Positions 26,505 through 46,454 of a stretch of 64,000 bases of DNA are shown here, piece after piece. Numbering within the stretch: position 1 is the stretch's first letter; every line of letters starts with the position of its first letter. This DNA is from a virus: positions 32,001-96,000 of IMG/VR virus record IMGVR_UViG_3300020421_003230; one strand, written 5' to 3'. The notes beneath the pieces were generated by a model. It was not told where the DNA came from, did no database searches, and saw only the letters and a list, made by a program, of their open reading frames with translations. Made by a program: the position numbers and the translations under genes.

Positions 26505-29500
26505 ATGGCAATATTAAAACGAATCAACAAATATCAAGGATTGAAGGACATTGATGTTTTAGTAGATGAGAAAGGATTAAGTTCTCAGTACTTTAATATC
26601 ACACAAGTTCCTACATCTTTCCCACAAGGAAGGTCTACCTTTATAATCGGTGGTTCGCCTTTCTTAAAAAATAATGTAGAACTTAAAATAGAGATATTAG
26701 ATTCTAAGGGTAAGACTGTTTATACAGAACCTATTACAAATTATCTTGAAGGTGATGGTAGAAGAGTAAGTGTAGAAATATATAACGATACATCACCTGG
26801 TGATTGTTTCTTATATGTTGTAGGTGAATTAAAAGATAATTACAAAAGTGTTTCTGCTCTTAATGAAAGTGTAGAAGATATTACCGACCAAATGCCTGAG
26901 ATGGAATTTGATGCATTTGATGGAAGTACTCAAGATGTACCATCAGAGTTTCAAGGTGTTTATAATGTACGATATTCAAGACCTATTAGTATCAGTACAA
27001 CAATTCCAAATAGTGAACCGATATTATTTTATAACCAACCAAGAGTTACAGTATCTGAAATATTAAAAGGATATGTAGTAGAGGTTCCTGTATCATCATC
27101 AGTACAGATAACAGGAAGTGCAGAATTTAAACCACAACCAAATTTACAACCTTTACCACCTGTACCTGAACCAGACCCAAATGGGTTTCCAATTATTGAT
27201 ACAAGTACAAGAGAAGATGTTGGTAAATCATTAGAAATATTTAAGAATCGCAGAAGTTCTAAAATAGAACCATTAAGATTCAGTAACTTTAAATCTCGTG
27301 GAAGAATCATGAGAAGAAGTTCACCTGAGATAGATAGAAATGAAATTATAATAGATTCATTAGAAACAGGTGAGGGAGTTGATGCAGATAAAGCTTCAAG
27401 TCAATTTGTTGGTGGTAATATTACAATTAATAATCCAAAAGTTGATTTTAGTAAACTACCTGGTGATGAGAGTAGATATACGATACCTGATAAATACGAA
27501 TCACAAATATCTAAAGTAAAGAATGAAAAAACAATTGTTCCTTTAGATGATTTTTTAATTACAGATAATGAAACAGGTGAAAGAATACCAATTGATATCA
27601 AACCTAATACAGAGGTTACGATGTCTTATGTTCCTACACCAGACCCTTCAATAAGTACAACACACTTCAGAGCATTCGCAGATATAACTCTTGGTAACTT
27701 AACCACATTTAGTGGTGATGTTTATAAGGCTAAGATTTCTGCTAGAAGTAGAGGAACACTTGGTGATTTTGAAACATTATATGATTCAACAATTGAAGCA
27801 CCAACTGTTTTAATAGATACATTCAGTCCAACAGGATTTAAAAATGTAGGTTACTTTTATACGGGTTCAATCATATCTGATTATTGGGATGTTTCAAATG
27901 GAACGGCAACTATAGATAATAGTAAGATGATTGATTCGGTATTGATTAGTGGTTCGAATCAAGGATTTACACCAGGTGTTGGTGATAGTACAAGTGGGCC
28001 AGTAACGAGTGATAGAAATGCAGTTATATTTGCTACATCACAAAGTTACGATTTAGAAAAGAATGTACCATATACGGTTTCATTCGATGCCTATTATTAC
28101 ACAGGCCCAAAACAAATGTCCCAAGATGGTGGAGTACAACAACATGCTGAGTTAGAAGTTATTGTAAGTGGTTCTGCAAGATTAGGAAATACAAATGAAG
28201 ATTATTCATTAGGTAAGGTAGAAGTTCCAACCAATACCACAGAGGGTGAAATAAAAGGAATACACAATACCTTTGTATCATCCACAACAGGAGACCCTAA
28301 ACTACGATTAAAATTTAAAGCAACTGCTGGTCAATGGATTATACATGATGTAGAAATAAAACCTTATAGTGAAACAAACTTTAATCCTGATTACTTCAGA
28401 ACGATTCTACCGATGCCACATCCAATGCCTAAGAAACCTGATAGTTATGATTTCTTAGTAGAGTTCTTTGATGTAAATAATAATATTGCTGAAACCATTG
28501 TAGTTAAAGAAGAAGTACCTTTTGCTGGTGCTCCTATAAACATTGATGGTGATGGTAACTTACTTAGTGGTTCTATGTATCTTGGTAATACTGAGGGTAG
28601 TGGTATTGAGATGCATGGTGGTTCTGCTTATCTAAGAAGTATTGGATATGATGGGTTTGATAACACTATAGCAAGTGGTAGTGGTGGATTTTTAATATTT
28701 AGTGGTTCTGTTGGGGATAGATTAAATTCTTCTGAAGATTATCAAGGTGTTGGTTTAGAAATAGTTGATGCTCATGGGGCAACAAATAGATTTATGAAAT
28801 TTAGAACAGACCCGAGTACATTCCAAGTACAAACGGATGAGTTCTTTTTAGGTAGTACATCACAATTTGTTAGTGGTAGTAATGGTAACATAGAAATTAG
28901 TTCAAGTAATTTCCACTTATCACCTGATGGTGATGTTACTATGGCAGGTACGATTAGTGCAACTGCTGGTAACATTGGAGATTTCCAAATTGTAAATGGA
29001 CAGATTAGTGGTAGTAACATTACTATGAATGCTACTCGTTCACAAATATTTAAAACAGACCAGGGTCCTGGTTCAGATACTTCAGCAGTTTTTGAAAACT
29101 TAAGAGATGAGTATTATATAGATTTTACACCAAGTGAAAGTATAGATAAAGTAAATAATTATCGACCTGGTTATTACATCAAGATGGGGCCAAACTTCAT
29201 GGTGGATAAAGATGGTATCTTGATTGCAAGTGGTGCAACATTCGAGGGTAGTATTACAGCATCTGCTGGTTTAATTGGTGGGTTCACAACGGATTCACAT
29301 TCGTTTAGTAGTAATAATATTTTTATTAGTGGTTCACCTGAAGTTGGTGGTATTGATGATTCTAAATATATGTTTATCAGTACATCAAAGTTTAATGTTA
29401 AACAAGATGGTAGTGTAACAGGTAGTGAATTTTTATTAGAGGGTGGTACAATTACTGATAATGTTACGATACTTGGTTCAGTATCTGCTAACTCTATTTT

Positions 29501-32500
29501 AACACCTGCTATAATTAATGGTAATCCATCAACAGAAGCAAATGCTTCATCATCTATATCATCAGAGGGATTTGCTAAGTTTGTTTCTGCTTCTATTGCT
29601 GGGTTTACTGTAAACACCGAAGAAATAAAATCATCGGATGAAAGCTTACGATTAAAATCAACAGGACAAATCACAGGTTCGAATGTATTATTTACTGGTG
29701 GTAAAATTGCAGCTTGGAGTATAAGTGGTAATAATATATCAAGTGATGGTGGTGGAATCAGATTAAATGGTAATGGAAATAGTGCAGAGATATCTGTAAA
29801 CTCTCATACTTTTGGAAATGAAGGAATACAATTTGGTTTCAATAGTGGAGCTCCAAGATTTTATGCTGGTGATGGTTCAAATAATTTTTTAAGATACGAT
29901 ACGAGTAATGGTGTAAATATTAAAACAATTAAATTTGAATTAGATACACCTACACTTGAGATATCATCTGCAGAAGCTTCTATGTCTTTGGGTTCAGGTC
30001 AAGAAGTTGTTATAAGAGGAAATAGTAATAGTCCATTTATAGCTATTCAACCAAGTGTAGCTCTTGTAGATAAAGCTTATGGTGAAATAGGAATAATGCT
30101 TGCAGTTGCGGCAGGTACAACACCATTGTTTTCAGTTGTAGGTACTGGTGGACATATAAAATTTAATGGAACTGGAATAGATTTAGCTTCCGATACTTTT
30201 GATTTAGATGCTGGAACTATCATTATGGCGAGTGCAACAAACAATGGTAAGATTGCACTTGGAGCAACACCACCTACGGCATACAATAGTGGTGATGGTG
30301 TTTACATGGATGGTACTGGTAAACTATTAATTGGTAGTGGGAGTGGAGACCATATTCAATTTGATGGTACTAATTTTGATGTTCAAGTTGGTTCATTAGA
30401 ATTAGATGCAAATAATATTGAAATCAGTTCTGCAAATGCTAGTATGTCATTGGGTGAGGGTAATATCTTACTTGATGGTTCTAATAATAAAATTAAAGTT
30501 GGTGCACACTCAAGTAATAATGTTGAGATAGTTGGTTCATCAACACAAGGATATATTGCTACAGGTAAAACATCTGCCACATCAACCACTGCTGGTTTTT
30601 GGTTGGCTAATAATAATTCAGACCCTGAGTTTCATGTTGGTGATGCTTCTAACTTTGTAAAATTTGATGGAGGTAATTTTAACCTTGCATCTGAGAACTT
30701 AGAAATATCATCATCTACAATTCAAATCTCTACTGCAGAATCAAGTATGAGTTTTGGTCATGATAATACTGCTAGTGATGGTAAGATTATAATAGAGGGT
30801 AAAGGTACACCATCATTTAGAGTTGGGCCTGATGCTGGAAACTTATCACTAACAGCAGGTAGTGGAGTATTCATAGATGGGGATGGTAACTTTAAGTTTG
30901 GTGATAGTGATGGTAATGTAACATTTGATGGTGGTTCATTTAGTATTACAGGTTCAGATGTTGCAATTAATGTTACAGATATTAATATTAGTTCAAGTGG
31001 ATTTGAAGTATCATCTACTGAAGCTTCTATGTCATTGGGTACTAATAAACAATGGTTGGCAAGTGGTAACGGAGTTAATCCATTTTTAAGTATAGGACAA
31101 ACCACAGCCGCCTATGATAATACAGGAATATTTCTTGGATATGTAAACTCAGTATCAAGACCTAAGTTCTCACTTGTGGGAAGTTCAGGACACTTAAAGT
31201 TTGATGATGGTATTGATATTGCCACAACAACATTCGAACTTGATACACCTGGTTTAGAAATATCTAACACACAACAAAGTATGAGTATTGGGCCTTCCAA
31301 TACAAATCCAATCACACTACAAAGTAATGGTGCTGATAGGTCTATAAGGTTTGGAAGTAAAACAGATTTTGACCAAACCACTACTGCTGGTTTCATTATG
31401 GGTATCGATAATGGAAATGCTAAGTTTGATTTTACAATAGGTTCAGGTAACAACAATTATATAAGAATGAGTTCAGGTGGAGTTGATATTAAAACACCTA
31501 ACTTCCTTTTAGATACCACTAACTTAGATATAAACTCAGCAACAAGTAGAATCTCAGTATCCGATGGAAGTAACGAAAGAGTACGAATTGGTGAGATAAG
31601 TGATTCGGCTTCTGATTTGTTTGGAATGAAAATTTATGATGGTAGTGGAACTGCCGATAGTAATACACTTGTAAAACTTGGAGAAGAAGGAAACGAAATA
31701 GCTGGTTGGACAATCACCAATGATAGATTGAGTGGTGGTAAGATGATTATCCGACAAGATGGTACAATTGAATCAGATGGGTTTGCAAGTAATGTTGCTG
31801 GTAGTGGATTTAGATTAACCGCTGACCAAGGTGGTTTCTTAGAAGTAGAAAATGCAAGAATTCGTGGTACGATGTCTACTACCGTATTTGAGAAAGAAAG
31901 TGTAAATGCAGTTGGTGGACAATTGTATGTTGCTAACTCAACAACATTAGCAACAGGTAGTATTGTAACGGCAGCTCAAACTACTATGTCGGTAGAGAAT
32001 GTTTCAGGATTTCTTGCCAACGAAATATTATCTGCAAAGAAAGTTGATTCAGGTGGATTCTCAACAGAGTATCTTTTAGTAGATAGTGCTTCACGAGATA
32101 ATCCATCAAGTCAAACAGATTTTAAAGGTAAGTTATTTGTAACAAGAGCTTATGGAAGTGGTGTAGCTGGTGATAGTGGTTCACTTGGAGATACACCAGG
32201 TAGTGCTACATTCTATAGTGGTTCTCAAGTTCTTGTAAGTACAGGAAAAGTTGGAACAGGATATATAAGATTAAATGCAAATCCAAGCGACCCAACCACA
32301 CCATATATTGATATTGTTGAGAGAACAGGTTCTGCAGTTTATGATGTAAGTTTAAAGGCAAGACTTGGAGATTTGAGTGGATTGAGTAGTGGATTACTTT
32401 ATGGTAACACTAATCCAGGTTTTGGTTTATTTACCGAGAATGTATTCCTACAAGGAGCCATAACTGCAACAACAGGTTCATTTACAGGTATTGTACATAT

Positions 32501-35500
32501 TGGAACATCTGCCGCAGAAGAAATGAGATTGGGTACTGATGTAAATAGTTCTAATGATGGTTTACATATTAACAATAACAATTATTGGTATACGACTGGT
32601 GCTTTCAAAGTTGGTAGTTCAAACTTCTTCCTTTCAAATGATTCAAGTGGTAACATATCAATTCAACCAAAAGAATTAACATTACAAGTTAGTGATGGAA
32701 GTGGTGGACACAAATTCGAACTTGCTGGTACAGCAACTGAACAATCAATGTCATTCAATAATGAAGATGTTGTAATTGGTTCAGATGGTTCAAGAGGATT
32801 TGCAAGAATAGGTAGAAATACAGCTAAGGCTATATTTGTTACAGGTTCACAAGCACTTGGTGCTATACGAATTGCTAAAGATAGTTTTACAGATGATACG
32901 GCTGGTTTTTGGTTGGCCAATGATGATGGTACACCACAATTTTATATTGGTAACTCATCATCACACTTAAAGTTTGATGGTAGTAATATATCATTATCAG
33001 GAGATGCTTTTAATGTAACGGCATCAAATGTAGATATCACTACAGGTACTATGTTAGTAGATGCTGATGATTTCCAAATCAATTCAACAATACCATCAAT
33101 GAGTTTGGGTTATGATAGTAATTCAAATGTTGGTATGGAGTTTGTGGGTGGAAGTACAACAACAATAAAATTTGGGCCTAAGGCTTCACCTAAATTACTT
33201 TTACAATCTGATTCACAAGATGCCTTTATGAGAATTGGTTCACAAACATTTGGTGGAACTGATGGTGGAATTATTATAGGTAGTGATAATGGAACTGCAA
33301 AATTAGATTTATTTACAGATTCAGATAACTTCTTTAGATTCAATGATAGTGAAGTTAGTATTAGAACTAACACATTTGATTTTCAAGGTACAAATCTTGC
33401 ATTGAATAATACAAGAATGTTTCTTGGTACAATCACAAGTAATTCAGATACAAGTGGTGCTGGTGTTTATATGGATAATGCTGGTGTGTTTAGATTACAA
33501 GGTGATACTACAAACTTTATTCGTGTAGGTGGTGGTTCATTAAGTATTGGTTCCGATGATTTAAATATTGATACCGCAAAAGGTGATATTGTATTTAATA
33601 GTGGAACACAAAGAATTTCATTAGGAGCTTCACCACCAACAGATTTTTCATCGAATGGAATTATCTTAAGTGGTAGTGGAGAATTTAACTTCCAACGAGA
33701 TGGAAGTAATTATATAAGGAACACATCAAGTGGTTTTGATATTAAGGCAGCTAATTTTGATTTAGATGCTGGAACCATAATAATGGATAATGGTACGAAT
33801 AGTGGTGTTATTAAATTAGGTGGAAGTGCTAGTACAATTACAGCTACTGCTAATGCTGGTATCTACATGGATGGTACGGGTGTGTTCAGAGTTGGAAGTG
33901 CAACAAGTGGTGATGCCTACATTTATTATGATGGTAGTACTTTGGATATTAATACTTCAGATTTAAGTATTATAACTACAGGTACCAATAAAATTAAAAT
34001 AGATTCCACAGCATCTACACCAGTACTTTCAATGGGTGCTACATTACCTACTGCTTACAATAGTGGTAATGGATTCTTTGTAGATGGTACAGGAAAGTTT
34101 TTAGTAGGTAACACTTCAGGTAACCATTTATCGTGGGATGGTACTAACATTACACTTGTTGGTTCAATCAGACAAACTACAGGTGGACAAACTATTGTAG
34201 ATTTTGTTGATAGAGGAACATGGTCAGGTTCAAGTACTTCATATGCTGTAAATGATTTAGTACAATATAGTGGTTCTACTTACAAATGTATAAACGCACA
34301 TACATCAACAAACGATACAAATACCACAACAGGTAGACCAGATACTGCTACAAATAGTTGGGCAGTTTATGCGGCTGGTGGTTCTGATGGAGCCGATGGA
34401 GCCGATGGAGCGGATGGTGCCGATGGTAGTCCTGGAGCTACTGCTAAGACCGTATCACTTTCCGCAAGTGCTTTTGTTATTGAATACAATGCTGCTGGTG
34501 GTGGTGGTAGTGGAACAATTACCTTAACGGCTACATCTCAAAACTTTACAAATGCCTTTTTTAAATTTACTGGTGGAGGAGGAGCATTTACAGATGAAAC
34601 TTCATACACCGATGGAAGTGGTGCAAATTCAGATACTGCTACATTTACTATTCCAGCATCTTATTCATCAACACCATACACCTTTACTGTATCTGTACAA
34701 GAGGGAGCAAGTGGTGGAGAGGTTGCTAGTGATACAGTAACGATTGCTTCAATCAAACCTGGTGCCGCTGGTAGTGATGGTTCAGATGGTGCAGACGGTG
34801 CTGATGGTTCAGATGGTGCTGCTGGTGCAGATGCTTACACCGTAATTTTAACTAATGAATCACACACATTACCAACAACAAATACAGGAACAGTTACCTA
34901 CACAGGTAGTGGAACTAATGTTGTTGTTTACAAAGGTGCAACAGAATTAAATAGTGTTACAGGAACACCAGGTAGTGGAGAATTTAAAGTAACAGCTACG
35001 GCAACTAATATTACAGCTGGTTCACAGACCGTAAGTGGTAATCCAGCAGTTTTTGCTGACCATTCAAATTGTTCTCAAAATACTGCTCAAGTTAGTTATG
35101 CAGTTCTGATTGAAAACACTACTACGATAACAAAGATACAATCTATATCAAAAGCAACTCAAGGTACAGATGGTTCAGATGGTGCTGATGGTGCTGATGG
35201 TGCTGATGGTGCGGCTGGTTCAAATGCTAAAAACATTTCAGTATCTGCTAACTCATTAGTTTTCGTAAAAGCACAAGATGGTACACTTTCACCAAGTTCA
35301 GTAACCATAACTGCAAACGGACAAAATTTAACACAGGCAGGTTCGTTTAGTACAACAGCTGGAACACTAACATCAAAAACAGAAAACTCAAGTGGTGGTT
35401 CTGCAACCGTAACAAGTGGTAACTTTGTAGATGGAATGGTGGTAACTTATACCACACATGGTAATGATGGAAGTTTAACCGATAGTGTAACATTAAAAGA

Positions 35501-38500
35501 ATTAGATGAGGGTAGTGGAACTGTATCTGCTATTCTTTCAAATGAGGCTCATGTATTCCCAGCAACTACTGCTGGAGCAGTTTCAAGTTATAGTAATAGT
35601 GGAACAACAATTAAAGTATTCGAGGGTGCAACTGCACTAACATTCACAACAGGTACACCTGCCGCTGGAGAATTTGCAGTAAGTGTTGGAAACACAGCAA
35701 ATATTACAGAGGGTGCAGTTAGTGGTAATGGAACAAATACTTGTACTATTGCTGACCATAGTGCGGCAGCTGATGGAACTGATGAATATGTAATCGTATA
35801 TACAATAACTGGTAAAACAGCAAACGGAACTTCGTTTACAAGTTTTACTAAATCACAATCATTAAGTAAATCTAAGACTGGTGCTACTGGTAATGCTGGA
35901 GCAAATGCTGCTACCTTAAATATTAGTTCCAATACACAAGTTTTTGCATTTGATAATTCAAGTGATACAACACCAACACCAACAACAGCAACCATAACTG
36001 TAAATCAACAAAATCAAGCCAGTGATTTAGTAACTGGTGATATTAGTGTAACGAATGGTAGTAAGAGTTCATTTAGTTATTCAGGTGGAAGTGGAACAGG
36101 AGCAGCTACCGTAACGATAACACCAAGTGGAACTTATCCTGTAACCGTATCTGTTTCAAATGATGGAATATCAGATAGTTTACAAATACCAAAAGTACAA
36201 GGTGGTAATGCTGGTGCTGATGGAAGTGATGGTTCTGATGGTTCTGATGGAAGTGCTGGTGCAGATGCTATTACAATTATTAATACAAACTCAACACATA
36301 CATTACCAGCAAATTCAAGTGGTGTGGTATCAAGTTATGCAAATAGTGGTACTACGATACAAGTTTATGAAGGAACCACACAATTAGATTACGATGGTAC
36401 TGGAACTGCAAATGGACATTTTACTATTGCCACTTCACAATCACCGACTTCAACAATTACAATTGGTTCTATAAGTGATTCAGGTAATGATGCAGTTGTT
36501 GCTGTTCATAGTGGTATGAGTAATACTACAGATAATGTATTGATAAATTATACAATTACTGGTAAAAGATTAGATGGAACTTCATTAGGTAGTATTGTTA
36601 CTACTCAAACTATTGGTAAAAACAAAACAGGTGCCGCTGGTAGTGATGGTTCAGATGGTGCTGATGGAAGTGATGGTTCAGATGGTACTGATGGTTCAGA
36701 TGGTGCAGGAGTAGTATTTAGAGGTGTATATGATGCAAGTACAAAATATTTCCATACATCAATAAGAAAAGATGTAGTTGAGGGTTCTGATGGTAATTAT
36801 TATATTGTAAATAATGAAAGTGATAATAATACAACAAATTGGAACAATCCAGTTGGTGGTGGTTCTGATTGGACAGCGTTCGGTGCACAATTTAGTTCAG
36901 TTGCAACCGATATATTATTAGCACAAGATGCCACAATAACAAATGGATTAGTTATTGGAGATGGTGCAGCAGATGGATTTATCAGGTCAGCAGATGCCAC
37001 AAGTGAAACTGCAGGAGCAGGATTCTTTATGATAGATGACCATTCCACATCATCTGCAAAATTTAGAGTTGGAACTGCAACAAGTGGTGATAATTATTTA
37101 TACTTCAATGGTTCTGGATTAGATATTAAAGCAGGAACATTTAATTTAGCAACTTCTACTGATTTAGTTATCAGTAGTGCTAATAAATCTATATCATTAG
37201 CAAATGGTAACATAACACTTGATGGTGATTCAAATTCAAATGTAGGACATATAGAAGTAGGTGGATTAACGGGTACTTCAGCAAACCAAACTCAAAAAGG
37301 TGCGTATTTCAAAGGTGATGGTGATTTTATTATAAAATCAAATACTACTGCTAATGAAAATTACATTCAAGGTTTAGGTGGAGATTTAATAATAAAGGCA
37401 GATGATATTGATATCACTTCTACCACATTTAATTTATCAACATCCACCTTACAAATAACTGATGGTTCCGCGGCAGCCGCAGCAGGTAAAATAGTAATAA
37501 GTGGAACAGACCAACATATAAAGATTGGTACAGGAATAAGTATTGATGGTGATGGTGATAGTAATGCTGGTTCTATTACTATTGGTAGTAATGTAACATT
37601 AAACGGAAGTAGTGATTCCACTATATCAGGTTGGACTGTAGGTAGTACATTATCTGCTAGTAGTGGTGCAACATTTATTGCACTTGACCCTGGTAATAAA
37701 AAAATTAGAATAGGTGAAAAAACAAGTATAGATAATAGTAATGATGGTGTTCACATTGGTAGTGACGGAATTTCTTTAGGTACAAACACACCTTTTAAAG
37801 TTACAGCTGCTGGTGTTTTAACTTCAAGTAGTGGAACGATTGGTGGTTGGACTATTGGTAATACATTATCAGCAACAAATATTATTTTAAATCCAGCAGG
37901 TCCAAATATTCAATTAGCTGGAAAAACCACATTTGCGGATAATAATGTTGATGGTGTTTACATCGGAACAGAGGGTATTGCAATTGGTGATGATAATGAA
38001 TTCTCAGTTACTAATGCTGGAGCGGTTGTAGCAACGAATATAACTGCTAAGGGTGGATTTATTGGTAATGGTGCAAGTGGATTTACTATTAATAATTCAC
38101 AATTCTATAATGGTAGAAGTTCATTCGCTTCAACCACTACAGGAGTTTATGTTGGTACTGATGGTATTAGTGTTGGTGAAAGTAGTGTGGGTAATGTAAA
38201 AATAAATGATTCTGGTGATATAACCGCATTTGGTACTAATGCAAGTAATAATATTAGAATTGTAACCAATCAATTTGATAATAATCCAGCTATTATATTC
38301 CAACAACCTGCTTTGGGTATTGGTGTTGGTATACCTATAACATTAAAAATGTCATCAACAGGTTCTTACTTTAATCCAAGAACTGATTATACAGAGAATG
38401 TAGATTTAAAATCAAATACACAATCTATAGGTACTGCTACAAGTACTTTTGGTTCTCAAGGTGGTGGAGCTTCACCAACAGTTGGAGATGATGTATACTT

Positions 38501-39533
38501 AGATGCTTTAGGATTTAATGGAACGGGTGCTAATGCGGGTAAAATATTCTCACTAAGTAATACACAAGTAGGTGCTGCATTTGTTGAGTTTGAAAATATA
38601 AATTTAAAAATTGATTCATTAACTAATAGTGGTACGGTAAGAGTAGGTATAGATTTTGAAATTTATCATTGTGATGGTTCTGATGCTACTTCAATTAGTA
38701 ATGCTGAGTTGGTAACAAGAACAAAACCTTTAGGTACATTTACTTCATTTTCAGCAGCTACTTCACCTGTCACATATACATTAAATGATGTAAGAGCTAT
38801 TGTTACTAAACAATTCTATTTTGCTAAAATTGTATTAACACATTATGAATTAACATCATTACCTGCTGGTTCTGATGAAGAAGTTATATGGGGTGGAAAT
38901 ACTGGTGGAACACAAGCTATTAATGAAGAAAAATATTTAACTAAAGTTACTGTTACTGGTAAAGGATTCCAATCATATGCTTCTGAATATTCACATGCTA
39001 AGTTCGGAGCTCAAAACCAAATCATTGGAGATTTAGCAGTTCAGGTAAACAGAGTTAACTTTGGTGGTAGGATGGCAGTTGGTGGACATTTAAATGTTGG
39101 TAGTGGTGATATCAATTCACAAACCGTATATGCATTACACACTACTGGTGATATTGCAGCTACTGGTAATATAGTAGCTTATATTAGTTCTGATGAAAGG
39201 TTAAAAGAAAATATAATACCAATCAGAAAAGGAGTAGATTTAATTCAAAAAATGAATCCTGTTGAGTTTGATTGGAATGAAAAGGGTGTACAATTTGGTT
39301 GGGGATTAAGAAAAGTTCAAGAAGGTGGTACACGAGATTTAGGATTTATTGCACAAGAACTTGAAGAAGTATTACCTGAAGTTGTTGGTACAGTGGAAAA
39401 TAAAGAAAAAGAAGAATATCTTGGTGTACAATATGAAAAAATTGTACCTGTATTGGTTAAGGCAGTTCAAGAACAACAAGAAGAAATCGATGAATTAAAA
39501 GAACTGGTAAAAAAATTAACAAAGGATAAGTAA
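26505..39533 (+). CDS. Giant tail fibre / host-attachment protein, 4342 aa, with C-terminal peptidase S74 intramolecular chaperone
   Basis: Gly/Ser/Thr-rich beta repeats (IGGWTI/IAGWTI, EISSxxASMSLG), collagen-like G-X-D tracts, ChiC/CBM5-12-like motif 'WSGSSTSYAVNDLVQYSGSTYKC..AHTS', and 'SDERLKENI..GFIAQELEEVLPEVV..YEKIVPVLVKAVQE' chaperone. Confidence 0.9.
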   Translation: MAILKRINKYQGLKDIDVLVDEKGLSSQYFNITQVPTSFPQGRSTFIIGGSPFLKNNVELKIEILDSKGKTVYTEPITNYLEGDGRRVSVEIYNDTSPGDCFLYVVGELKDNYKSVSALNESVEDITDQMPEMEFDAFDGSTQDVPSEFQGVYNVRYSRPISISTTIPNSEPILFYNQPRVTVSEILKGYVVEVPVSSSVQITGSAEFKPQPNLQPLPPVPEPDPNGFPIIDTSTREDVGKSLEIFKNRRSSKIEPLRFSNFKSRGRIMRRSSPEIDRNEIIIDSLETGEGVDADKASSQFVGGNITINNPKVDFSKLPGDESRYTIPDKYESQISKVKNEKTIVPLDDFLITDNETGERIPIDIKPNTEVTMSYVPTPDPSISTTHFRAFADITLGNLTTFSGDVYKAKISARSRGTLGDFETLYDSTIEAPTVLIDTFSPTGFKNVGYFYTGSIISDYWDVSNGTATIDNSKMIDSVLISGSNQGFTPGVGDSTSGPVTSDRNAVIFATSQSYDLEKNVPYTVSFDAYYYTGPKQMSQDGGVQQHAELEVIVSGSARLGNTNEDYSLGKVEVPTNTTEGEIKGIHNTFVSSTTGDPKLRLKFKATAGQWIIHDVEIKPYSETNFNPDYFRTILPMPHPMPKKPDSYDFLVEFFDVNNNIAETIVVKEEVPFAGAPINIDGDGNLLSGSMYLGNTEGSGIEMHGGSAYLRSIGYDGFDNTIASGSGGFLIFSGSVGDRLNSSEDYQGVGLEIVDAHGATNRFMKFRTDPSTFQVQTDEFFLGSTSQFVSGSNGNIEISSSNFHLSPDGDVTMAGTISATAGNIGDFQIVNGQISGSNITMNATRSQIFKTDQGPGSDTSAVFENLRDEYYIDFTPSESIDKVNNYRPGYYIKMGPNFMVDKDGILIASGATFEGSITASAGLIGGFTTDSHSFSSNNIFISGSPEVGGIDDSKYMFISTSKFNVKQDGSVTGSEFLLEGGTITDNVTILGSVSANSILTPAIINGNPSTEANASSSISSEGFAKFVSASIAGFTVNTEEIKSSDESLRLKSTGQITGSNVLFTGGKIAAWSISGNNISSDGGGIRLNGNGNSAEISVNSHTFGNEGIQFGFNSGAPRFYAGDGSNNFLRYDTSNGVNIKTIKFELDTPTLEISSAEASMSLGSGQEVVIRGNSNSPFIAIQPSVALVDKAYGEIGIMLAVAAGTTPLFSVVGTGGHIKFNGTGIDLASDTFDLDAGTIIMASATNNGKIALGATPPTAYNSGDGVYMDGTGKLLIGSGSGDHIQFDGTNFDVQVGSLELDANNIEISSANASMSLGEGNILLDGSNNKIKVGAHSSNNVEIVGSSTQGYIATGKTSATSTTAGFWLANNNSDPEFHVGDASNFVKFDGGNFNLASENLEISSSTIQISTAESSMSFGHDNTASDGKIIIEGKGTPSFRVGPDAGNLSLTAGSGVFIDGDGNFKFGDSDGNVTFDGGSFSITGSDVAINVTDINISSSGFEVSSTEASMSLGTNKQWLASGNGVNPFLSIGQTTAAYDNTGIFLGYVNSVSRPKFSLVGSSGHLKFDDGIDIATTTFELDTPGLEISNTQQSMSIGPSNTNPITLQSNGADRSIRFGSKTDFDQTTTAGFIMGIDNGNAKFDFTIGSGNNNYIRMSSGGVDIKTPNFLLDTTNLDINSATSRISVSDGSNERVRIGEISDSASDLFGMKIYDGSGTADSNTLVKLGEEGNEIAGWTITNDRLSGGKMIIRQDGTIESDGFASNVAGSGFRLTADQGGFLEVENARIRGTMSTTVFEKESVNAVGGQLYVANSTTLATGSIVTAAQTTMSVENVSGFLANEILSAKKVDSGGFSTEYLLVDSASRDNPSSQTDFKGKLFVTRAYGSGVAGDSGSLGDTPGSATFYSGSQVLVSTGKVGTGYIRLNANPSDPTTPYIDIVERTGSAVYDVSLKARLGDLSGLSSGLLYGNTNPGFGLFTENVFLQGAITATTGSFTGIVHIGTSAAEEMRLGTDVNSSNDGLHINNNNYWYTTGAFKVGSSNFFLSNDSSGNISIQPKELTLQVSDGSGGHKFELAGTATEQSMSFNNEDVVIGSDGSRGFARIGRNTAKAIFVTGSQALGAIRIAKDSFTDDTAGFWLANDDGTPQFYIGNSSSHLKFDGSNISLSGDAFNVTASNVDITTGTMLVDADDFQINSTIPSMSLGYDSNSNVGMEFVGGSTTTIKFGPKASPKLLLQSDSQDAFMRIGSQTFGGTDGGIIIGSDNGTAKLDLFTDSDNFFRFNDSEVSIRTNTFDFQGTNLALNNTRMFLGTITSNSDTSGAGVYMDNAGVFRLQGDTTNFIRVGGGSLSIGSDDLNIDTAKGDIVFNSGTQRISLGASPPTDFSSNGIILSGSGEFNFQRDGSNYIRNTSSGFDIKAANFDLDAGTIIMDNGTNSGVIKLGGSASTITATANAGIYMDGTGVFRVGSATSGDAYIYYDGSTLDINTSDLSIITTGTNKIKIDSTASTPVLSMGATLPTAYNSGNGFFVDGTGKFLVGNTSGNHLSWDGTNITLVGSIRQTTGGQTIVDFVDRGTWSGSSTSYAVNDLVQYSGSTYKCINAHTSTNDTNTTTGRPDTATNSWAVYAAGGSDGADGADGADGADGSPGATAKTVSLSASAFVIEYNAAGGGGSGTITLTATSQNFTNAFFKFTGGGGAFTDETSYTDGSGANSDTATFTIPASYSSTPYTFTVSVQEGASGGEVASDTVTIASIKPGAAGSDGSDGADGADGSDGAAGADAYTVILTNESHTLPTTNTGTVTYTGSGTNVVVYKGATELNSVTGTPGSGEFKVTATATNITAGSQTVSGNPAVFADHSNCSQNTAQVSYAVLIENTTTITKIQSISKATQGTDGSDGADGADGADGAAGSNAKNISVSANSLVFVKAQDGTLSPSSVTITANGQNLTQAGSFSTTAGTLTSKTENSSGGSATVTSGNFVDGMVVTYTTHGNDGSLTDSVTLKELDEGSGTVSAILSNEAHVFPATTAGAVSSYSNSGTTIKVFEGATALTFTTGTPAAGEFAVSVGNTANITEGAVSGNGTNTCTIADHSAAADGTDEYVIVYTITGKTANGTSFTSFTKSQSLSKSKTGATGNAGANAATLNISSNTQVFAFDNSSDTTPTPTTATITVNQQNQASDLVTGDISVTNGSKSSFSYSGGSGTGAATVTITPSGTYPVTVSVSNDGISDSLQIPKVQGGNAGADGSDGSDGSDGSAGADAITIINTNSTHTLPANSSGVVSSYANSGTTIQVYEGTTQLDYDGTGTANGHFTIATSQSPTSTITIGSISDSGNDAVVAVHSGMSNTTDNVLINYTITGKRLDGTSLGSIVTTQTIGKNKTGAAGSDGSDGADGSDGSDGTDGSDGAGVVFRGVYDASTKYFHTSIRKDVVEGSDGNYYIVNNESDNNTTNWNNPVGGGSDWTAFGAQFSSVATDILLAQDATITNGLVIGDGAADGFIRSADATSETAGAGFFMIDDHSTSSAKFRVGTATSGDNYLYFNGSGLDIKAGTFNLATSTDLVISSANKSISLANGNITLDGDSNSNVGHIEVGGLTGTSANQTQKGAYFKGDGDFIIKSNTTANENYIQGLGGDLIIKADDIDITSTTFNLSTSTLQITDGSAAAAAGKIVISGTDQHIKIGTGISIDGDGDSNAGSITIGSNVTLNGSSDSTISGWTVGSTLSASSGATFIALDPGNKKIRIGEKTSIDNSNDGVHIGSDGISLGTNTPFKVTAAGVLTSSSGTIGGWTIGNTLSATNIILNPAGPNIQLAGKTTFADNNVDGVYIGTEGIAIGDDNEFSVTNAGAVVATNITAKGGFIGNGASGFTINNSQFYNGRSSFASTTTGVYVGTDGISVGESSVGNVKINDSGDITAFGTNASNNIRIVTNQFDNNPAIIFQQPALGIGVGIPITLKMSSTGSYFNPRTDYTENVDLKSNTQSIGTATSTFGSQGGGASPTVGDDVYLDALGFNGTGANAGKIFSLSNTQVGAAFVEFENINLKIDSLTNSGTVRVGIDFEIYHCDGSDATSISNAELVTRTKPLGTFTSFSAATSPVTYTLNDVRAIVTKQFYFAKIVLTHYELTSLPAGSDEEVIWGGNTGGTQAINEEKYLTKVTVTGKGFQSYASEYSHAKFGAQNQIIGDLAVQVNRVNFGGRMAVGGHLNVGSGDINSQTVYALHTTGDIAATGNIVAYISSDERLKENIIPIRKGVDLIQKMNPVEFDWNEKGVQFGWGLRKVQEGGTRDLGFIAQELEEVLPEVVGTVENKEKEEYLGVQYEKIVPVLVKAVQEQQEEIDELKELVKKLTKDK
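34380..36710 (+). repeat. Five collagen-like (Gly-Ala/Ser-Asp)n 9-bp repeat tracts within the tail fibre
   Basis: Tracts near 34380-34436, 34761-34832, 35163-35225, 36213-36266 and 36630-36710 (GGT/GGA-GCN/TCN-GAT units), separated by Ig-like beta domains. Confidence 0.9.
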
Positions 39534-40615
39534 TGGCATACGCACCTACTGGTTCATTTCTAACAATTAATGCTTTAGCATATGCACTTGATGGTAGTAC
39601 CTCATCTTCAGCTGAAGAAGTAAAAACTAATTCTGGTTCACATGGTGTGGATATGAGGCAAATTGCAAAACGATATCAAGGAACATTGGGTGTAAATGAT
39701 GACGACCCTACAGAATTTTCTTTAGGTGATTTTGGTGTAGATAAATTTCAATCATGTGTAGTAGACCCAACAGGAAGAGTCACAGAATCACCATCAGGTG
39801 GAACAACTGTAAACGAGGGAGTTACAAGTATCTTTTTTGCAAGAGTTCAAAATTGTGGTACACAATGGACAAGTAGTTTAGGTGGTGATGAAAATAATTG
39901 GTCATGGACTTTGAATGTTAATGCACCATATACAGCAGAAGTTGGTGATATATCTTTTACCAATGCACATGCTAATTGTTCAGCTTCATTTAGTACTATA
40001 CAAGATGCAGATGGAGATAATGATACCGTATTAGTATCTTATACATATACGGATGATTACAATGTATCTGCTTCAAATTATAATACTCAAGTTTCCAATA
40101 CAATAACAATTGTTGATACTTATACACCAGGTGGTGGTGGTGGTTGTTTTGCTTTAAACACTATGGTGAGTAAAAGTGATGGTACATCTGTACAAATGGA
40201 TGATTTAGAAATTGGAGATGAAGTTGTTTCTTTTGGTTACCAGGATATGATAGATGAATCTGATTCTGATGATTATAGGGGATATACAACACATAGTTTA
40301 TCTACAGGATTTTATACAAGTTCTTTCGTAAAAGATATGACTTATACTTATTTAGATTCTTATTACCACATAAACAATAGTATTAAGGTTAGTGATTTAC
40401 ATTCATTTTGGGTAAGTGGTTCAGATAATATGTGGTCATGGAAAACTGCTGATAAGATGTCAGTTGGTGATTGGTTTTTAAGTGATAATAAAAAAGTAGT
40501 TCAAGTTAGTTCTTCAATACTTATTAATGATGAGTTAGAAGCAATGTTTGTAAATGTTGAAGATGTTGATACATTATTTGTAGAGGGGGTTTTAGTACAC
40601 AATGCAAAAGATTAA
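39533..40615 (+). CDS. Putative virion protein with C-terminal Hint (intein-like) domain
   Basis: 'PGGGGG|CFALNTMV..DG..MDDLEIGDEV...VSDLH...VNVEDVDTLFVEGVLVHN|AKD'; Hint at 40145-40603; coupled to the tail fibre by TAATG. Confidence 0.85.
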   Translation: MAYAPTGSFLTINALAYALDGSTSSSAEEVKTNSGSHGVDMRQIAKRYQGTLGVNDDDPTEFSLGDFGVDKFQSCVVDPTGRVTESPSGGTTVNEGVTSIFFARVQNCGTQWTSSLGGDENNWSWTLNVNAPYTAEVGDISFTNAHANCSASFSTIQDADGDNDTVLVSYTYTDDYNVSASNYNTQVSNTITIVDTYTPGGGGGCFALNTMVSKSDGTSVQMDDLEIGDEVVSFGYQDMIDESDSDDYRGYTTHSLSTGFYTSSFVKDMTYTYLDSYYHINNSIKVSDLHSFWVSGSDNMWSWKTADKMSVGDWFLSDNKKVVQVSSSILINDELEAMFVNVEDVDTLFVEGVLVHNAKD

Positions 40616-41774
40616 AGAATATGATGTTTATTATACCACAGGTGGTGGTACTTTAGTTGGTGGAGGTGCCGATGTTTGGGTTAACAATTGGATAAAAGAA
40701 ATAGCACCGAAATTAAATGTAACACCAAAGTTGATGATTCATAGAAATCGTCCTAAAGTTGAATGGAGTTTAGAACAACATAAAAAGTTTGAAGATAAAG
40801 TAAAGAAAAATCAAAATGTAGGTGAAGGTCGTAGTGTTCATCAACAAATAAAGAAAAATTTCAAAGAGGCTACTAACCAAGATGTCAATCATACTTGGAC
40901 AACACCTAAATCATATACACCAGCACCAGAACTTGAATACTTTTGGCAAGGTGATGATATGGATGAATTTGAAAAAGTAATGAAAGGTGCTAGAAGAATT
41001 CATATTCTACATGGATATTATTCACCACATCGTTATATTACTGAAAACTTAGATAAAATTCATACCAATGCTGTACATTGTGATGTACATAAAGCAATGA
41101 TGGCTCCATTTATTTTGGGTTTAGAAAAATCGTTTCATTTTCATATGGAGAAAAAATGGGAAAATGAAATTGTAGAATCAGCTAAACATCCATTTTGGAT
41201 TGGTGTATCTAAACCTAATTTAAATAAGAATCCCAATCATTTACTACACATACCAAACTATTATGAATTTAAACATAATAAAGATGTTACTGATAATAAT
41301 AGAATTGGTTTTGCTGCAAGAATGGAATCAAGAAAGTGTCCACATTTTTTAGATGGGTTAAAGGCTGATGTTTATACGGATACAAAAGATATTCAATGGT
41401 GGGAAAGAAATGTAAACCTTAATACAAAACTATGGAGAAAGTTTGTTTTCAGATGGGAACATCTTGATAGATTTTATCAAAGGGATTGGGGAATATCACA
41501 CTCGGCACATATTTACGAACCATTTGGATATTCAATATTTCAAGCGGTTGATTGGGGTAAGGTTCCTATATTGGCACACGATTGGTTACCAAAATATGAT
41601 TATCCATTTAGAGCTTCTAATTCTGTAGAGTTTCATGAACAATATAAAAAGTTGTGTGAAGTATCATTAGATGGAAGAAGAAATATATTAAATCCACTTA
41701 GAGAATATTTAACTGAAAAGTTTGATAATAAAGAAGAGTGGGTAGAAAAAATGTTAAAATTATATAATGAGTGA
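40602..41774 (+). CDS. GT-B fold glycosyltransferase (GT4-like)
   Basis: N-terminal 'GGGADVW', 'IGFAARMESRK', and 'EPFGYSIFQA..GKVPI' (the canonical second Glu is Gln here). Confidence 0.75.
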   Translation: MQKIKEYDVYYTTGGGTLVGGGADVWVNNWIKEIAPKLNVTPKLMIHRNRPKVEWSLEQHKKFEDKVKKNQNVGEGRSVHQQIKKNFKEATNQDVNHTWTTPKSYTPAPELEYFWQGDDMDEFEKVMKGARRIHILHGYYSPHRYITENLDKIHTNAVHCDVHKAMMAPFILGLEKSFHFHMEKKWENEIVESAKHPFWIGVSKPNLNKNPNHLLHIPNYYEFKHNKDVTDNNRIGFAARMESRKCPHFLDGLKADVYTDTKDIQWWERNVNLNTKLWRKFVFRWEHLDRFYQRDWGISHSAHIYEPFGYSIFQAVDWGKVPILAHDWLPKYDYPFRASNSVEFHEQYKKLCEVSLDGRRNILNPLREYLTEKFDNKEEWVEKMLKLYNE

Positions 41775-41785
41775 TATTTATTAAC

Positions 41786-42832
41786 ATGAGTACAACAGCA
41801 AATCAAGACTTATCATTAGGAAAATTAAAGAGGGCCGTAGATGGAACCGATTCATATACTACCGCCGACACTTCTTTGGGTACTCAAAATGATGGTTCAA
41901 GTGAAACAAAGATGTCGGACTTTTCTATTGATAGTGTAGATAGTACATCAGGATTTGCATATCTTTGGGAAAGTACTTCTGAAACCTATCAATTAAATTT
42001 TACAAATAATGGTGCACTATTTTTATCTAAGATAGGAAATAGAACAGAAAACTTTGATTGGTTGAGTAGTGATGCTATAGTTTCAATTAGTGGTGATTAT
42101 ACCGCTACTGCTACAGCTGGTGCTATTTCAAATGCCAATACAGGTACTGGTGATGCTACTGATTTCTTACCAGCTGGTACAAATAATGTAGATTTAACAA
42201 TTCGAGGTAGATATAATGATGATGGACAGACTGATGGATATAATGACCATGCAACTAATTATAATACATACAGAAATAAAGCAGTTCAGGTTATTGATGC
42301 ATATGGTGGTTCACCAAGTTGTTTATTAATCGGTACACCAATCGAGATGGCAGATGGTTCATTTAAAGATGTAGAAGATTTAGAAATAGGTGATTGGGTA
42401 TTAGCTATGAATATGCCTGGTCAATTGGATGAGGATGAAAAAGATTGGAGAAGTTCAAGGTTTGAGGATTCTTCTAAATTCACACAACATTCAGCAAGTG
42501 TTCAAGATATTAACTTTGATTTTGCACATAATTATTGGAATATTAATAATGGTTCTGAATTAATTACAGGTGAACATGAAATGTTATATAAACCAAAAAC
42601 TGCTGATAGTGAATTTGCTACAAAGTGGATGTGGCAATTAGTTCCTAATATGAAAGTTGGTGATTTATTGATGGATAAAGATGGGAATGAAGTTAAAATT
42701 ACTTCATTGGAAAATGTTATAGATAATGATACAGGATTTGAAGTTGTACAGATTGATGTTGAACCATTAGATGTTTATTTTGGTAAAACCTTTTTAGTAC
42801 ACAATAAGGGAAGTGATTCGAATCCATTTTAA
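41786..42832 (+). CDS. Putative virion protein with C-terminal Hint (intein-like) domain
   Basis: Start probably at ATG 41786 just after ATATTTAT (41774-41781). 'YGGSPS|CLLIGTPIEMADG..VEDLEIGDWV...ITGEH...IDVEPLDVYF..FLVHN|KGS'; Hint at 42320-42805. N-terminal part ends like 39533 (DxYNxxAxNYNT..IxD.Y). Confidence 0.85.
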   Translation: MSTTANQDLSLGKLKRAVDGTDSYTTADTSLGTQNDGSSETKMSDFSIDSVDSTSGFAYLWESTSETYQLNFTNNGALFLSKIGNRTENFDWLSSDAIVSISGDYTATATAGAISNANTGTGDATDFLPAGTNNVDLTIRGRYNDDGQTDGYNDHATNYNTYRNKAVQVIDAYGGSPSCLLIGTPIEMADGSFKDVEDLEIGDWVLAMNMPGQLDEDEKDWRSSRFEDSSKFTQHSASVQDINFDFAHNYWNINNGSELITGEHEMLYKPKTADSEFATKWMWQLVPNMKVGDLLMDKDGNEVKITSLENVIDNDTGFEVVQIDVEPLDVYFGKTFLVHNKGSDSNPF

Positions 42833-42883: not shown

Positions 42884-43612
42884 ATGAATCGAAACATATT
42901 AAATTACGATGCAATAAAATATTTCATCACTAATAATGGTGAAATTGGAAAAGTACCATATCGTTGGACACATGGTGCCACGGATTTACATATGGGTGAT
43001 GGGTTATTAATTTACTCTATCGTACAATTTTATAAATCAAAAACTTGTGTGTGCTTAGGAAGTGGTGGTGGATTCATTCCAAGAATAATATCACAGGCAA
43101 GACAAGATTTACACCGAGATGGTACATTTACAGGTAGTGATAAATATGATTATGGTGATATTGGTTCAACATACATTGTTGATGCAATGAATGGAATAAA
43201 TGGTGAAGTAGATTGGGAAGATAAAGATAGTTTTCTTAATGTTAATTTTTGGCCACAAGTTATAAAAGAAACTACAGAAGATGCATATTATAATTTCTTT
43301 GTAAAGAGAGAAATGAAAATAGATTACTTACACATTGATGCTGACCATACACTTGATGGAGTGAAAAAAGATTTTGAGTTATATTCAAATATATTGAGTA
43401 AAAATGGAATAGTTACAATACATGATACTGATAAAAATTATGTTGATAACTTTTCTGAAATAGAAAATCACAAGGGAGATGATTTATCAGGCCCAAGTGA
43501 ATTTGTAAAAACAATTAATAAGAAAAGGTTCGAAGTATTTAATTTTTTTAATCATGGAATTATGAAAGATAAACCAAGTTCAACAGGACTAACGATTGTG
43601 AGGAAGAAATGA
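42884..43612 (+). CDS. Class I SAM-dependent methyltransferase (Methyltransf_24-like)
   Basis: 'CVCLGSGGG' SAM loop, 'IDYLHIDADHTLDGVKKDF', 'GIVTIHD'. Confidence 0.85.
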   Translation: MNRNILNYDAIKYFITNNGEIGKVPYRWTHGATDLHMGDGLLIYSIVQFYKSKTCVCLGSGGGFIPRIISQARQDLHRDGTFTGSDKYDYGDIGSTYIVDAMNGINGEVDWEDKDSFLNVNFWPQVIKETTEDAYYNFFVKREMKIDYLHIDADHTLDGVKKDFELYSNILSKNGIVTIHDTDKNYVDNFSEIENHKGDDLSGPSEFVKTINKKRFEVFNFFNHGIMKDKPSSTGLTIVRKK

Positions 43613-46231: not shown

Positions 46232-46454
46232 AAAAAACAATTACGAAGAAAGAGCCACTAAGGCACTTGAAAGTATTGCAGATTCATTTCAAACCATAGA
46301 GGATTCAGTACTTGATGTTGATTTTCCTATGTGGAGTGAAAGATTAGAATGGTACTTAAATGAATTCTTCAAAATTGCACAACAAAGAACTATTGGTAGT
46401 TCGAATAGACCAACTGTAGATAGAGAACGAAATATTGATGAAACAAAAGAATAA
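46224..46454 (+). CDS. Hypothetical protein
   Basis: 76 aa; AAGGAG RBS. Confidence 0.65.
   Translation: MSEKNNYEERATKALESIADSFQTIEDSVLDVDFPMWSERLEWYLNEFFKIAQQRTIGSSNRPTVDRERNIDETKE

Follow-up and report, generated by a model that had tools for sequence, protein, structure and literature searches.

Two paralogous proteins encoded directly downstream of a giant fibre gene, here called A and B, probably carry a domesticated, type-A BIL-like Hint domain that would remove itself via a thioester and act as a single-use maturation or assembly cap. This mechanism is inferred from the chemistry of the Hint family and from the conserved residues. Known Hint domains comprise selfish inteins, the processing domains of hedgehog proteins and a few BIL domains of bacteria; the family of phage Hint caps described here is large and apparently unstudied. 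The window is a stretch of 64,000 nt from a virus record (IMG/VR IMGVR_UViG_3300020421_003230, positions 32,001 to 96,000). Its source is best explained as a large uncultured marine phage, with A and B as fibre-associated paralogs. The relevant features of the window are as follows.

26505..39533, + strand: giant fibre-like protein, 4342 aa (Pfam domains)
39189-39386 (aa 4229-4294 of the giant fibre), + strand: C-terminal Peptidase_S74 self-cleaving chaperone, begins SDERLKEN
39533..40144, + strand: protein A N-domain, aa 1-204, acidic, Ser/Thr-rich, end PGGGGG
40145..40603, + strand: protein A Hint domain, aa 205-357, Cys1 (CFALNT), block B VSDLH, terminal VHN
40604..40615, + strand: protein A tail Ala-Lys-Asp and stop codon, overlapped by the start of the middle gene
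40602..41774, + strand: middle gene, 390 aa, probable GT-B-like glycosyltransferase (Atlas look-alikes)
41771..42319, + strand: protein B helical segment (~aa 8-50), Ig-like beta-sandwich (aa 51-177) and linker YGGSPS
42320..42805, + strand: protein B Hint domain, aa 184-345, Cys1 (CLLIGT), block B ITGEH, terminal VHN
42806..42832, + strand: protein B tail KGSDSNPF and stop codon
42884..50819, + strand: conserved block downstream of B, from the methyltransferase to the first radical-SAM gene
42884-43612, + strand: methyltransferase gene of this block
43609-44466, + strand: gene for a 285-aa protein of this block
44466-45932, 46435-47826 and 47823-49247, + strand: three GT7-type glycosyltransferases, two with a LamG domain
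49248-50819, + strand: first radical-SAM gene of this block

The 4342-aa ORF upstream of A is fibre-like, in line with an earlier note on this DNA that had placed both proteins directly after the tail fibre. Its Peptidase_S74 domain was detected with the Pfam profile at E 3.5e-14 (53.2 bits against a cut-off of 22), together with a CBM_5_12 match (Pfam, E 7.4e-7) and a collagen-like match under Pfam's cut-off. Overlaps are found at the fibre/A boundary (TAATG), between A and the middle gene (14 nt) and at the listed GTG start of B (GTGA). ORF A (360 aa) occupies 39533-40615 and ORF B (353 aa) 41771-42832; translation of B likely starts only at the ATG at 41786, in alignment with the Met that its orthologues all share. 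The gene order of the downstream block is common to most of 30 related loci.

The paralogy of A and B extends across both domains (25% identity in 334 columns; BLASTP E 1e-24). The earlier note described two related proteins of about 350 aa, each with an acidic, Ser/Thr-rich N-domain followed by a minimal Hint, and this agrees with the computed values: the N-domains have a pI of 4.05 (A) and 4.09 (B) and a Ser/Thr content of 23.5% and 24.6%, and the Hints comprise 153 aa (A) and 162 aa (B). The translations likewise contain the reported motifs. With a slash at each junction, A reads PGGGGG/CFALNT...VHN/AKD and B reads YGGSPS/CLLIGT...VHN/KGSDSNPF, both up to the stop codon, so that the +1 residues are Ala and Lys and the tails (C-exteins) have 3 and 8 residues. 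Cys1, the block-B His and the terminal His-Asn are present in both proteins; the nucleophile and block B are C205 and S286..H290 (VSDLH) in A, and C184 and ITGEH in B.

A C-terminal His-Asn without Cys, Ser or Thr at +1 defines type-A BILs in the available part of the source (PMC4031507). Both phage Hints have this arrangement, are of minimal size and, rather than interrupting a conserved site of an essential enzyme, lie at the C-terminus of fibre-neighbour proteins; homing endonuclease families were absent from A and B in the Pfam search. That they represent selfish mini-inteins or decaying remnants is extremely unlikely: fold and His-Asn are intein-like, but there is neither a +1 nucleophile nor a homing endonuclease, the Hint sits at the protein end and not at a conserved site, and it is retained under purifying selection in 28/30 orthologous B-position genes. 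The earlier note had argued against selfish inteins on similar grounds. A canonical class 1 intein was rejected on the +1 Ala/Lys, the tails of 3 and 8 aa and the tail-free Hint-less homologues described below.

In the structural models, the Hint fold of A and B is confident, closest to BIL domains and far beyond chance. The Hint part of model A (aa 201-360) has block-mean pLDDT values of mostly 73-91, with a loop below 50 at aa 238-254; the mean pLDDT of model B is 85. Foldseek returned 64 PDB matches for the Hint of A at E <= 0.001, with a Hint fold throughout among the matches listed and BIL2 (6y75) as the best (E 1.1e-10). With VIA-align, model B reached Z 19.2 to BIL2 (6tmm; rmsd 1.9 over 143 aa), 18.1 to the C. 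thermocellum BIL (2lwy; rmsd 1.6 over 134 aa) and 17.1 to hedgehog (1at0), within a range of 14-19 to BILs, inteins and hedgehog. A profile search against PDB sequences found 2lwy at E 8e-11. Pfam Hint-family matches of A and B were all under the gathering scores. The best match of A, PT-HINT (PF07591), reached 22.6 bits against a cut-off of 27.7 and also matches 9/30 family members; B had no match to it, and no domain follows downstream.

Three known systems share this fold. Hedgehog/Hog and the PT-HINT of polymorphic toxins resemble A in its G/CF-type junction, whereas the phage Hints have no sterol-recognition region, no toxin domain and Pfam scores below the cut-off, and they keep the terminal His-Asn, which hedgehog-type domains are not known to have. 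The C. thermocellum type-A BIL (2lwy) matches in fold, Cys1, block B and His-Asn, has neither a +1 Cys/Ser/Thr nor an endonuclease, and likewise occurs in variable surface-type proteins. For this BIL, cleavage at the ends is expected, with ligation via an amine as an option, according to the available part of PMC4031507. In contrast to 2lwy, the phage Hints lie at the very C-terminus of fibre-associated Ig-like proteins with a 3- or 8-residue tail, and an invariant tail lysine is the rule of their family. BIL2 of Tetrahymena thermophila BUBL1 (6tmm, 6y75) is the best structural match for both models, at a sequence identity of only 17-22%; its exteins are ubiquitin-like, whereas the phage N-extein is Ig-like and the C-extein a short peptide.

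The Hint family comprises 17,805 representative proteins at E <= 0.001, many of which are phage fibre-region proteins with the Hint as a C-terminal cap. Family counts, which are based on the best 150 of the 17,805 matches to a profile that included the tails and describe related sequences rather than independent samples, give Cys1 in 245, the terminal His in 240, the terminal Asn in 242, and in block B Thr in 223, Ser in 15 and His in 231 of 250 full Hints from 178 proteins. The block-B Ser of A is thus a minority state. Among terminal Hints (tail <= 15 aa; n=91), every tail contains a lysine (91/91, within +1 to +4 in 75), against about 27 expected in a hand calculation from a 5.6% background and the tail lengths, and none ends at the Asn (0/91). 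At -1, 45 of the 91 carry Gly and the others Ala, Ser, Thr or further residues, so the ubiquitin-like Gly-Gly end proposed in the earlier note does not extend to the family. Cys1 is preceded by a Gly-rich linker more often in terminal than in internal Hints (59/91 vs 49/148).

The N-domain of B is predicted to be an Ig-like sandwich. Over aa 51-177 the block-mean pLDDT is mostly ~82-97 (59-70 over aa 121-140), and VIA Z scores of 6.0-6.8 were obtained to Ig-like domains of T5 pb6, Big_2, FdeC, phi29 and lambda gpV. The N-domain of A is homologous to that of B; its model is weak (pLDDT < 50). A ubiquitin-like beta-grasp N-domain, as in a BUBL-type cassette, was rejected on the Ig-like model of B. 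Three stand-alone N-domain homologues of 161-162 aa without a Hint (L022, L032, L033) end in ...NYGDAG, ...AYTGGS and ...AYDGS, respectively, where Cys1 would follow, and the KGS..PF tail occurs in none of them. Because these natural proteins end at the junction, release of a mature N-domain, which the earlier note had offered as its simpler alternative, is the best-supported outcome.

A and B would each consist of a conserved N-terminal helical segment, an Ig-like beta-sandwich, a short Gly-rich linker, the type-A BIL-like Hint and a short lysine-bearing tail. Cys1 would attack the preceding peptide bond in an N-S acyl shift aided by the block-B Thr/Ser and His, so that the Ig-like module would end in a thioester. 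Either water or the amine of the invariant lysine in the tail could resolve this thioester; in the latter case the 3- or 8-residue tail would stay attached. Cyclisation at His-Asn would detach the tail and the Hint would leave, giving a mature product of helix and Ig-like module with the end ...Y-G-G-x. Both end cleavage and ligation without a +1 nucleophile are described for type-A BILs (PMC4031507, available part). As a single-use switch for maturation or assembly, the Hint would parallel the Peptidase_S74 chaperone of tail fibres and endosialidases, here present on the giant fibre: both would be C-terminal self-removing modules of phage fibre proteins, S74 by known function and the Hint cap by prediction. 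Fold and chemistry of S74 are unrelated to the Hint; it uses a serine-lysine dyad and forms no thioester. If the cap is indeed a device for maturation or ligation via a thioester, it would represent a new principle of virion assembly and would also provide, ready-made in nature, short protein tags that remove or ligate themselves.

If the Hint were merely discarded, there would be no need for a strict terminal Asn or for a lysine in tails of just 1-8 residues, which argues for chemistry beyond simple hydrolysis. The invariant lysine fits lysine-directed chemistry. No rule of a lysine always following the terminal Asn was found in the available text of the published BIL/Hint work searched. It is conceivable, if somewhat doubtful, that this lysine is the nucleophile, built-in or as a template, of a lysine-directed, ATP-free ligation in virion assembly. 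In cis, the reaction would be an isopeptide 'splice' to the tail or, in longer relatives, to FN3/LamG domains; in trans, the thioester could be handed to a lysine on the fibre. Sequence continues past His-Asn for 96-251 aa in 13/30 representative N-domain proteins, and for 607 in the aligned relative P0114. These extra parts resemble FN3 or LamG (Laminin_G_3 in 4/30 and fn3 in 2/30; Pfam, alignment A4), and in such relatives the Hint may serve to ligate and not just to be removed. The B tail KGSDSNPF aligns with the linker KGSNDEPTY that precedes the further domain in longer relatives. A lysine-directed reaction of this kind would amount to widespread ATP-free covalent ligation in phages, a viral counterpart of Tetrahymena BIL2.

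Intermolecular conjugation, in which a nucleophile from elsewhere, for instance a lysine of the fibre or of another virion protein, captures the Cys1 thioester and the Ig-like module becomes covalently attached without ATP, is unlikely. BIL2, the nearest structural match by both Foldseek and VIA, is reported to resolve its thioester with a lysine amine into an isopeptide bond and to conjugate to other substrates, in both cases without ATP (PMC8616854, available part), chemistry that fits the conserved lysine after His-Asn. The Gly-rich linkers of terminal Hints and the position of A, the middle gene and B directly after, and overlapping with, the fibre gene also favour conjugation. On the other hand, the N-domain of B is Ig-like and not ubiquitin-like, a Gly-Gly end is not family-wide, the Hint-less homologues show that activation of the C-terminus is not required for the module to exist, and the invariant lysine is in cis, which favours an intramolecular reaction.

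Among 16 B orthologues, mean pairwise identity is 0.58 for the Hint and 0.52 for the Ig-like domain. By sequence, the Hint is thus at least as conserved as the Ig-like domain and under purifying selection; this degree of conservation is also compatible with a retained functional domain. A Hint that remains part of the mature protein for structure or binding, its catalytic-looking residues being conserved because folding needs them, would also agree with the match of PHROG 38766 'virion structural protein' to the Hint part only. Nevertheless, the near-universal Cys1, TxxH and His-Asn are hard to explain by folding alone, and the Hint-less homologues end at the junction. Moreover, the Hint is decayed and without His-Asn in two A-position genes (L012, L030), which indicates that decay is possible where the domain is presumably not needed. 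Retention is distinctly improbable.

The middle gene adjoins a B-type Hint protein in 27/30 related viral loci, with a second Hint protein upstream in 20 of those 27, so the Hint-middle gene-Hint order that the earlier note wished to see checked is conserved. A Hint protein adjoins in all of these loci that hold a middle-gene homologue (27/27), in 6/9 further contigs and in the 484-kb phage LR756508; none was found within 6 kb of three homologues at 32-34% identity. The 793 homologues stem from a large marine viral family, and none has a Pfam domain. For the middle gene itself, Pfam and PHROG gave no match, and a profile of 22 sequences found nothing among PDB sequences. PF00534 occurs in 2/22 family members (E 0.037), and its search of the phage genome found nothing. 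Among the sets listed, ESM Atlas look-alikes with scores of 0.96-0.97 belong to GT-B families or are named glycosyltransferases. On the basis of these language-model look-alikes, the middle gene is probably a glycosyltransferase; of the GT-B gene reported earlier between A and B, the conserved gene stands, and its GT-B identity, with the look-alikes as sole support, was not confirmed. The Ser/Thr-rich N-domains, or else the fibre, are the most likely targets of this conserved partner.

A hedgehog-like reaction, in which a sugar or lipid hydroxyl or an amine supplied by the GT-B-like partner resolves the thioester to give a C-terminal glycan or lipid, is very improbable. The conserved pairing of middle gene and Hint would suit it, and we take the G/CF junction of A to resemble the hedgehog cleavage site. 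However, ordinary O-glycosylation of the Ser/Thr-rich proteins would account for the adjacency equally well, as would a gene order passed down by descent; the GT-B fold was not confirmed by the profile searches described above, and the three distant middle-gene homologues have no Hint protein within 6 kb. A sterol- or adduct-recognition region is absent after the Hint core, where only 3 or 8 residues follow. The conserved pairing of the Ig-like modules with a probable glycosyltransferase, and with a long block of genes for glycan modification, suggests that these modules are surface parts that become decorated and matter for how marine phages recognise their hosts.

The window belongs to a 122-kb viral record that is 67% complete according to CheckV. 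It has a G+C content of about 30% and carries nearly all genes on the + strand; its products include a baseplate wedge protein, a primase and an SbcC-like nuclease. Based on SbcC, the nearest isolate is Microcystis phage Mel-JY01 (38.7% identity); the 484-kb uncultured phage LR756508 ranks next. No GenBank phage matched the region by megablast, and a tblastn search of GenBank phages with protein A returned only two records. Proteins A and B, both ending in a Hint domain, are encoded behind a giant fibre gene and enclose a further gene, here called the middle gene:

26505-39533, + strand, giant fibre ORF (4342 aa) with Peptidase_S74 at aa 4229-4294 (E 3.5e-14), CBM_5_12 and a collagen-like match below the Pfam cut-off
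39533-40615, + strand, protein A (360 aa), start overlapped by the giant-fibre stop codon
40602-41774, + strand, middle gene (390 aa), start overlapping the last codons of A
41771-42832, + strand, protein B (353 aa), listed GTG start overlapping the end of the middle gene

Judging by its three domain matches, the 4342-aa ORF is a giant fibre that brings along a self-cleaving chaperone at its C-terminus. In the related loci L019-L031, the A-position Hint gene is closely preceded by separate small ORFs (136-193 aa) that share 38-47% identity with a region of about 130 aa in this fibre. For B, the ATG at 41786 is a likelier start than the listed GTG, as it lines up with a Met that is invariant among the orthologues.

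A and B are paralogues related across both domains (BLASTP E 1e-24), and, as described in the earlier note, both carry the first Hint residue Cys1, the block-B His and the terminal His-Asn. With slashes marking the Hint boundaries, A reads PGGGGG/CFALNT...VSDLH...VHN/AKD and B reads YGGSPS/CLLIGT...ITGEH...VHN/KGSDSNPF. The N-domains are acidic (pI ~4.1) and contain 23.5-24.6% Ser+Thr.

All Pfam matches of the two Hint domains remain below the cut-offs (PT-HINT 22.6 bits, Hint 20.5, Hom_end_hint 21.2). A five-member family profile searched against PDB sequences, however, retrieved 2lwy, a BIL domain of C. thermocellum (E 8e-11). AlphaFold predicted the Hint domain of A with confidence, and the top Foldseek ranks of this model are the Tetrahymena BIL2 domain and 2lwy. 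In an all-against-all structural alignment, the B model matched BIL2 with Z 19.2 (rmsd 1.9, 143 aa), 2lwy with Z 18.1, hedgehog with Z 17.1 and inteins with Z 14-17. Profile and structure evidence is decisive despite the Pfam scores, and the domains are classed with type-A BIL domains. Genes of this kind have been deposited as "intein domain protein" (phage NCTB) and "Hint domain containing protein" (BFVD). A selfish intein, already discounted in the earlier note, is rejected and retains hardly any probability, since Cys, Ser or Thr is missing at +1 (the residue after His-Asn), a homing endonuclease is lacking and the Hint is under conservation.

A third Hint-type domain of the window is located in a protein encoded two genes downstream of the baseplate wedge gene:

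3712-8520, + strand, 1602-aa protein, Hint-type domain at aa 299-408 (nt 4606-4935)

It matches Pfam Vint (PF14623) above the cut-off (E 3.4e-19), opens with YGSV/CFHGDT after a poly-Pro stretch and is followed by about 1190 aa; a terminal His-Asn is not obvious.

A family profile search of 1.84 billion representatives yielded 17,805 hits at E <= 0.001, 205 of them at E <= 1e-30. The Hint domain was found in all 152 family proteins examined and the N-domain in 30, always immediately ahead of the Hint. Residues were counted in 250 full Hint domains from 178 proteins (representatives from the best 150 hits, related loci and the window), which are related sequences. Cys1 is present in 245, block-B Thr in 223 and Ser in 15, block-B His in 231, the terminal His in 240 and Asn in 242. 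Among 16 B orthologues, the mean pairwise identity is 0.58 for the Hint and 0.52 for the Ig-like domain; the Hint equals or surpasses the Ig-like domain in conservation and is thus not decaying in B.

The residues past His-Asn, referred to as the tail, follow an unexpected rule. Lys occupies +1 in 145 of 239 Hint domains with His-Asn. None of the 91 proteins with tails of <= 15 residues ends at Asn, and every one of these tails contains Lys, located at +1 to +4 in 75. All one-residue tails among the matches listed are Lys (HNK). By hand calculation (Lys = 5.6% of residues), about 27 of 91 would be expected by chance, a figure that gives no clean probability since the sequences share ancestry and tails were part of the profile used for the search. 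Both window proteins agree with the rule (AKD in A, KGSDSNPF in B).

The N-domain of A, modelled from a 5-sequence alignment, has a pLDDT below 50, whereas B, modelled from 30 sequences, reaches a mean of 85. The B model predicts a conserved N-terminal helical segment and a beta-sandwich at aa 51-177, with block-mean pLDDT of ~82-97 except for 59-70 over aa 121-140. The sandwich aligns with Ig-like domains of T5 pb6, Big_2, FdeC, phi29 and lambda gpV at Z 6.0-6.8, which is middling and usual for so common a fold. The ubiquitin-like N-domain suggested in the earlier note is not supported: the predicted fold of B is Ig-like, which rules out a beta-grasp for this protein.

In 13 of the 30 proteins with an N-domain, the chain runs on for 96-251 aa past His-Asn, and in P0114, another relative in the alignment, for 607 aa. 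The added sequence resembles FN3 or LamG domains; Pfam assigned Laminin_G_3 to 4 and fn3 to 2 of 30 alignment members. The B tail aligns to the linker KGSNDEPTY of the extended relatives. Many further family matches are head-to-tail Hint arrays joined by VHNKGG/CF. P0005, P0009, P0018, P0097 and others contain 3-5 (up to 7 partial) Hint domains separated only by VHNKGG/CFLAGT linkers.

Searches for related loci with A alone and with B alone found no relatives, and a 9-sequence B-family alignment recovered 30 IMG/VR loci. The recurrent order is fibre, X-Hint protein, middle gene, N-domain-Hint protein, methyltransferase, 285-aa protein, GT7/LamG glycosyltransferases and radical-SAM enzymes. The middle gene lies directly 5' of the B-type gene in 27 loci, in line with the synteny to be checked according to the earlier note; of the others, one begins at a contig end and two have a Hint-less N-domain gene only. 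A second Hint-ending protein is encoded between fibre and middle gene in 20 of these 27 loci and absent in seven. These upstream proteins comprise 232-1750 aa, typically with Gly-rich junctions (e.g. YDTYGGGG/C) and endings such as VHDK, VHGK, VHAK, GKGE and AGKAP; two have degenerated, and a contig end truncates one.

Three loci (L022, L032, L033) encode stand-alone proteins of 161-162 aa, directly after a fibre gene, that align with the B N-domain. They end in NYGDAG, AYTGGS and AYDGS, at the position of Cys1 in B (AYGGSPS/C), and none of the three carries the KGS..PF tail. From their sequences, they look like an N-cleavage product encoded straight in the genome.

In Hint domains, Cys1 converts the bond to the residue before it into a thioester. 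Fold, residues, conservation, synteny and junction-ending homologues are established for A and B in the present data, and a one-shot maturation step appears the most probable reading, with moderate confidence. A thioester would form at the C-terminal end of the Ig-like module in A and B and be resolved by water or the tail lysine; the Hint would be released, this cap acting as a single-use maturation switch alongside the S74-capped fibre. According to PMC4031507, type-A BILs, with His-Asn and without a +1 nucleophile, mostly cleave, and ligation via a free amine is possible. ATP-free lysine isopeptide formation by Tetrahymena BIL2 is described in PMC8616854. Such chemistry would also suit transfer of the thioester to a lysine of another molecule, as the earlier note proposed; with a lysine present in the tails of A and B themselves, we regard this as unlikely. 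A Hint kept on the protein unprocessed would fit its high conservation, but the retained reactive residues and the Hint-less homologues count against it; we give it a lower chance still.

The earlier note had placed a GT-B glycosyltransferase between the Hint proteins. The gene is there; its GT-B label is unconfirmed. The middle gene matched neither Pfam nor PHROG, none of its 793 homologues has a Pfam domain, and a 22-sequence profile found nothing among PDB sequences. PF00534 matched 2 of 22 relatives (E 0.037) and nothing in this genome. The sole pointer to GT-B is the ESM Atlas, a lead and no test, in which the named sets among the matches listed are all GT-B (Glycos_transf_1, Glyco_trans_1_4, AGT) or "glycosyltransferase" (scores 0.96-0.97).

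With the middle gene as query, nine further contigs were found, six with an adjoining Hint protein; in the three most distant (32-34% identity), no Hint protein is encoded within 6 kb. In LR756508, an X-Hint protein ending in HNKH directly precedes a middle-gene homologue (34% identity). The tail-fibre cluster of phage NCTB encodes three Hint proteins, all with Lys-bearing tails; the part of NCTB covered here holds no homologue of the middle gene. Hedgehog-like attachment of a sugar or lipid with the help of the neighbouring enzyme would draw on this synteny and on the G/CF junction of A; with the GT-B label unconfirmed, the three distant middle-gene homologues lacking a Hint neighbour and the terminal His-Asn kept, it seems very improbable. 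NCTB (LT598654.1, L001 2822-3283) also has a free-standing 153-aa Hint gene with almost no N-extein (MLKQVITC) and the tail KVD, located between two fibre genes and beside a 506-aa Hint-capped tail protein.

A search of the openly accessible literature found no account of phage fibre proteins capped by a terminal Hint domain. The locus contributes the Ig-like head family on Hint-capped proteins, the pairing of Hint proteins around a conserved probable glycosyltransferase, the Hint-less homologues ending at the junction and the relatives extended by FN3 and LamG domains.

Three consecutive paralogous GT7-type (beta-1,4-galactosyltransferase-like) genes are located at 44466-49247 (+ strand). Two carry a fused Laminin_G_3, the LamG family also found as C-extein past the Hint in longer B relatives. 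At least four radical-SAM/SPASM-type genes follow directly (49248-55715, + strand); this run is conserved in position in most related loci, some of which encode it as fusion proteins of 683-828 aa. Where the structural block gives way to the replication genes, a PAP2-superfamily phosphatase gene (20415-21041, + strand; E 1.1e-9) is embedded in a group of small genes of unknown function.
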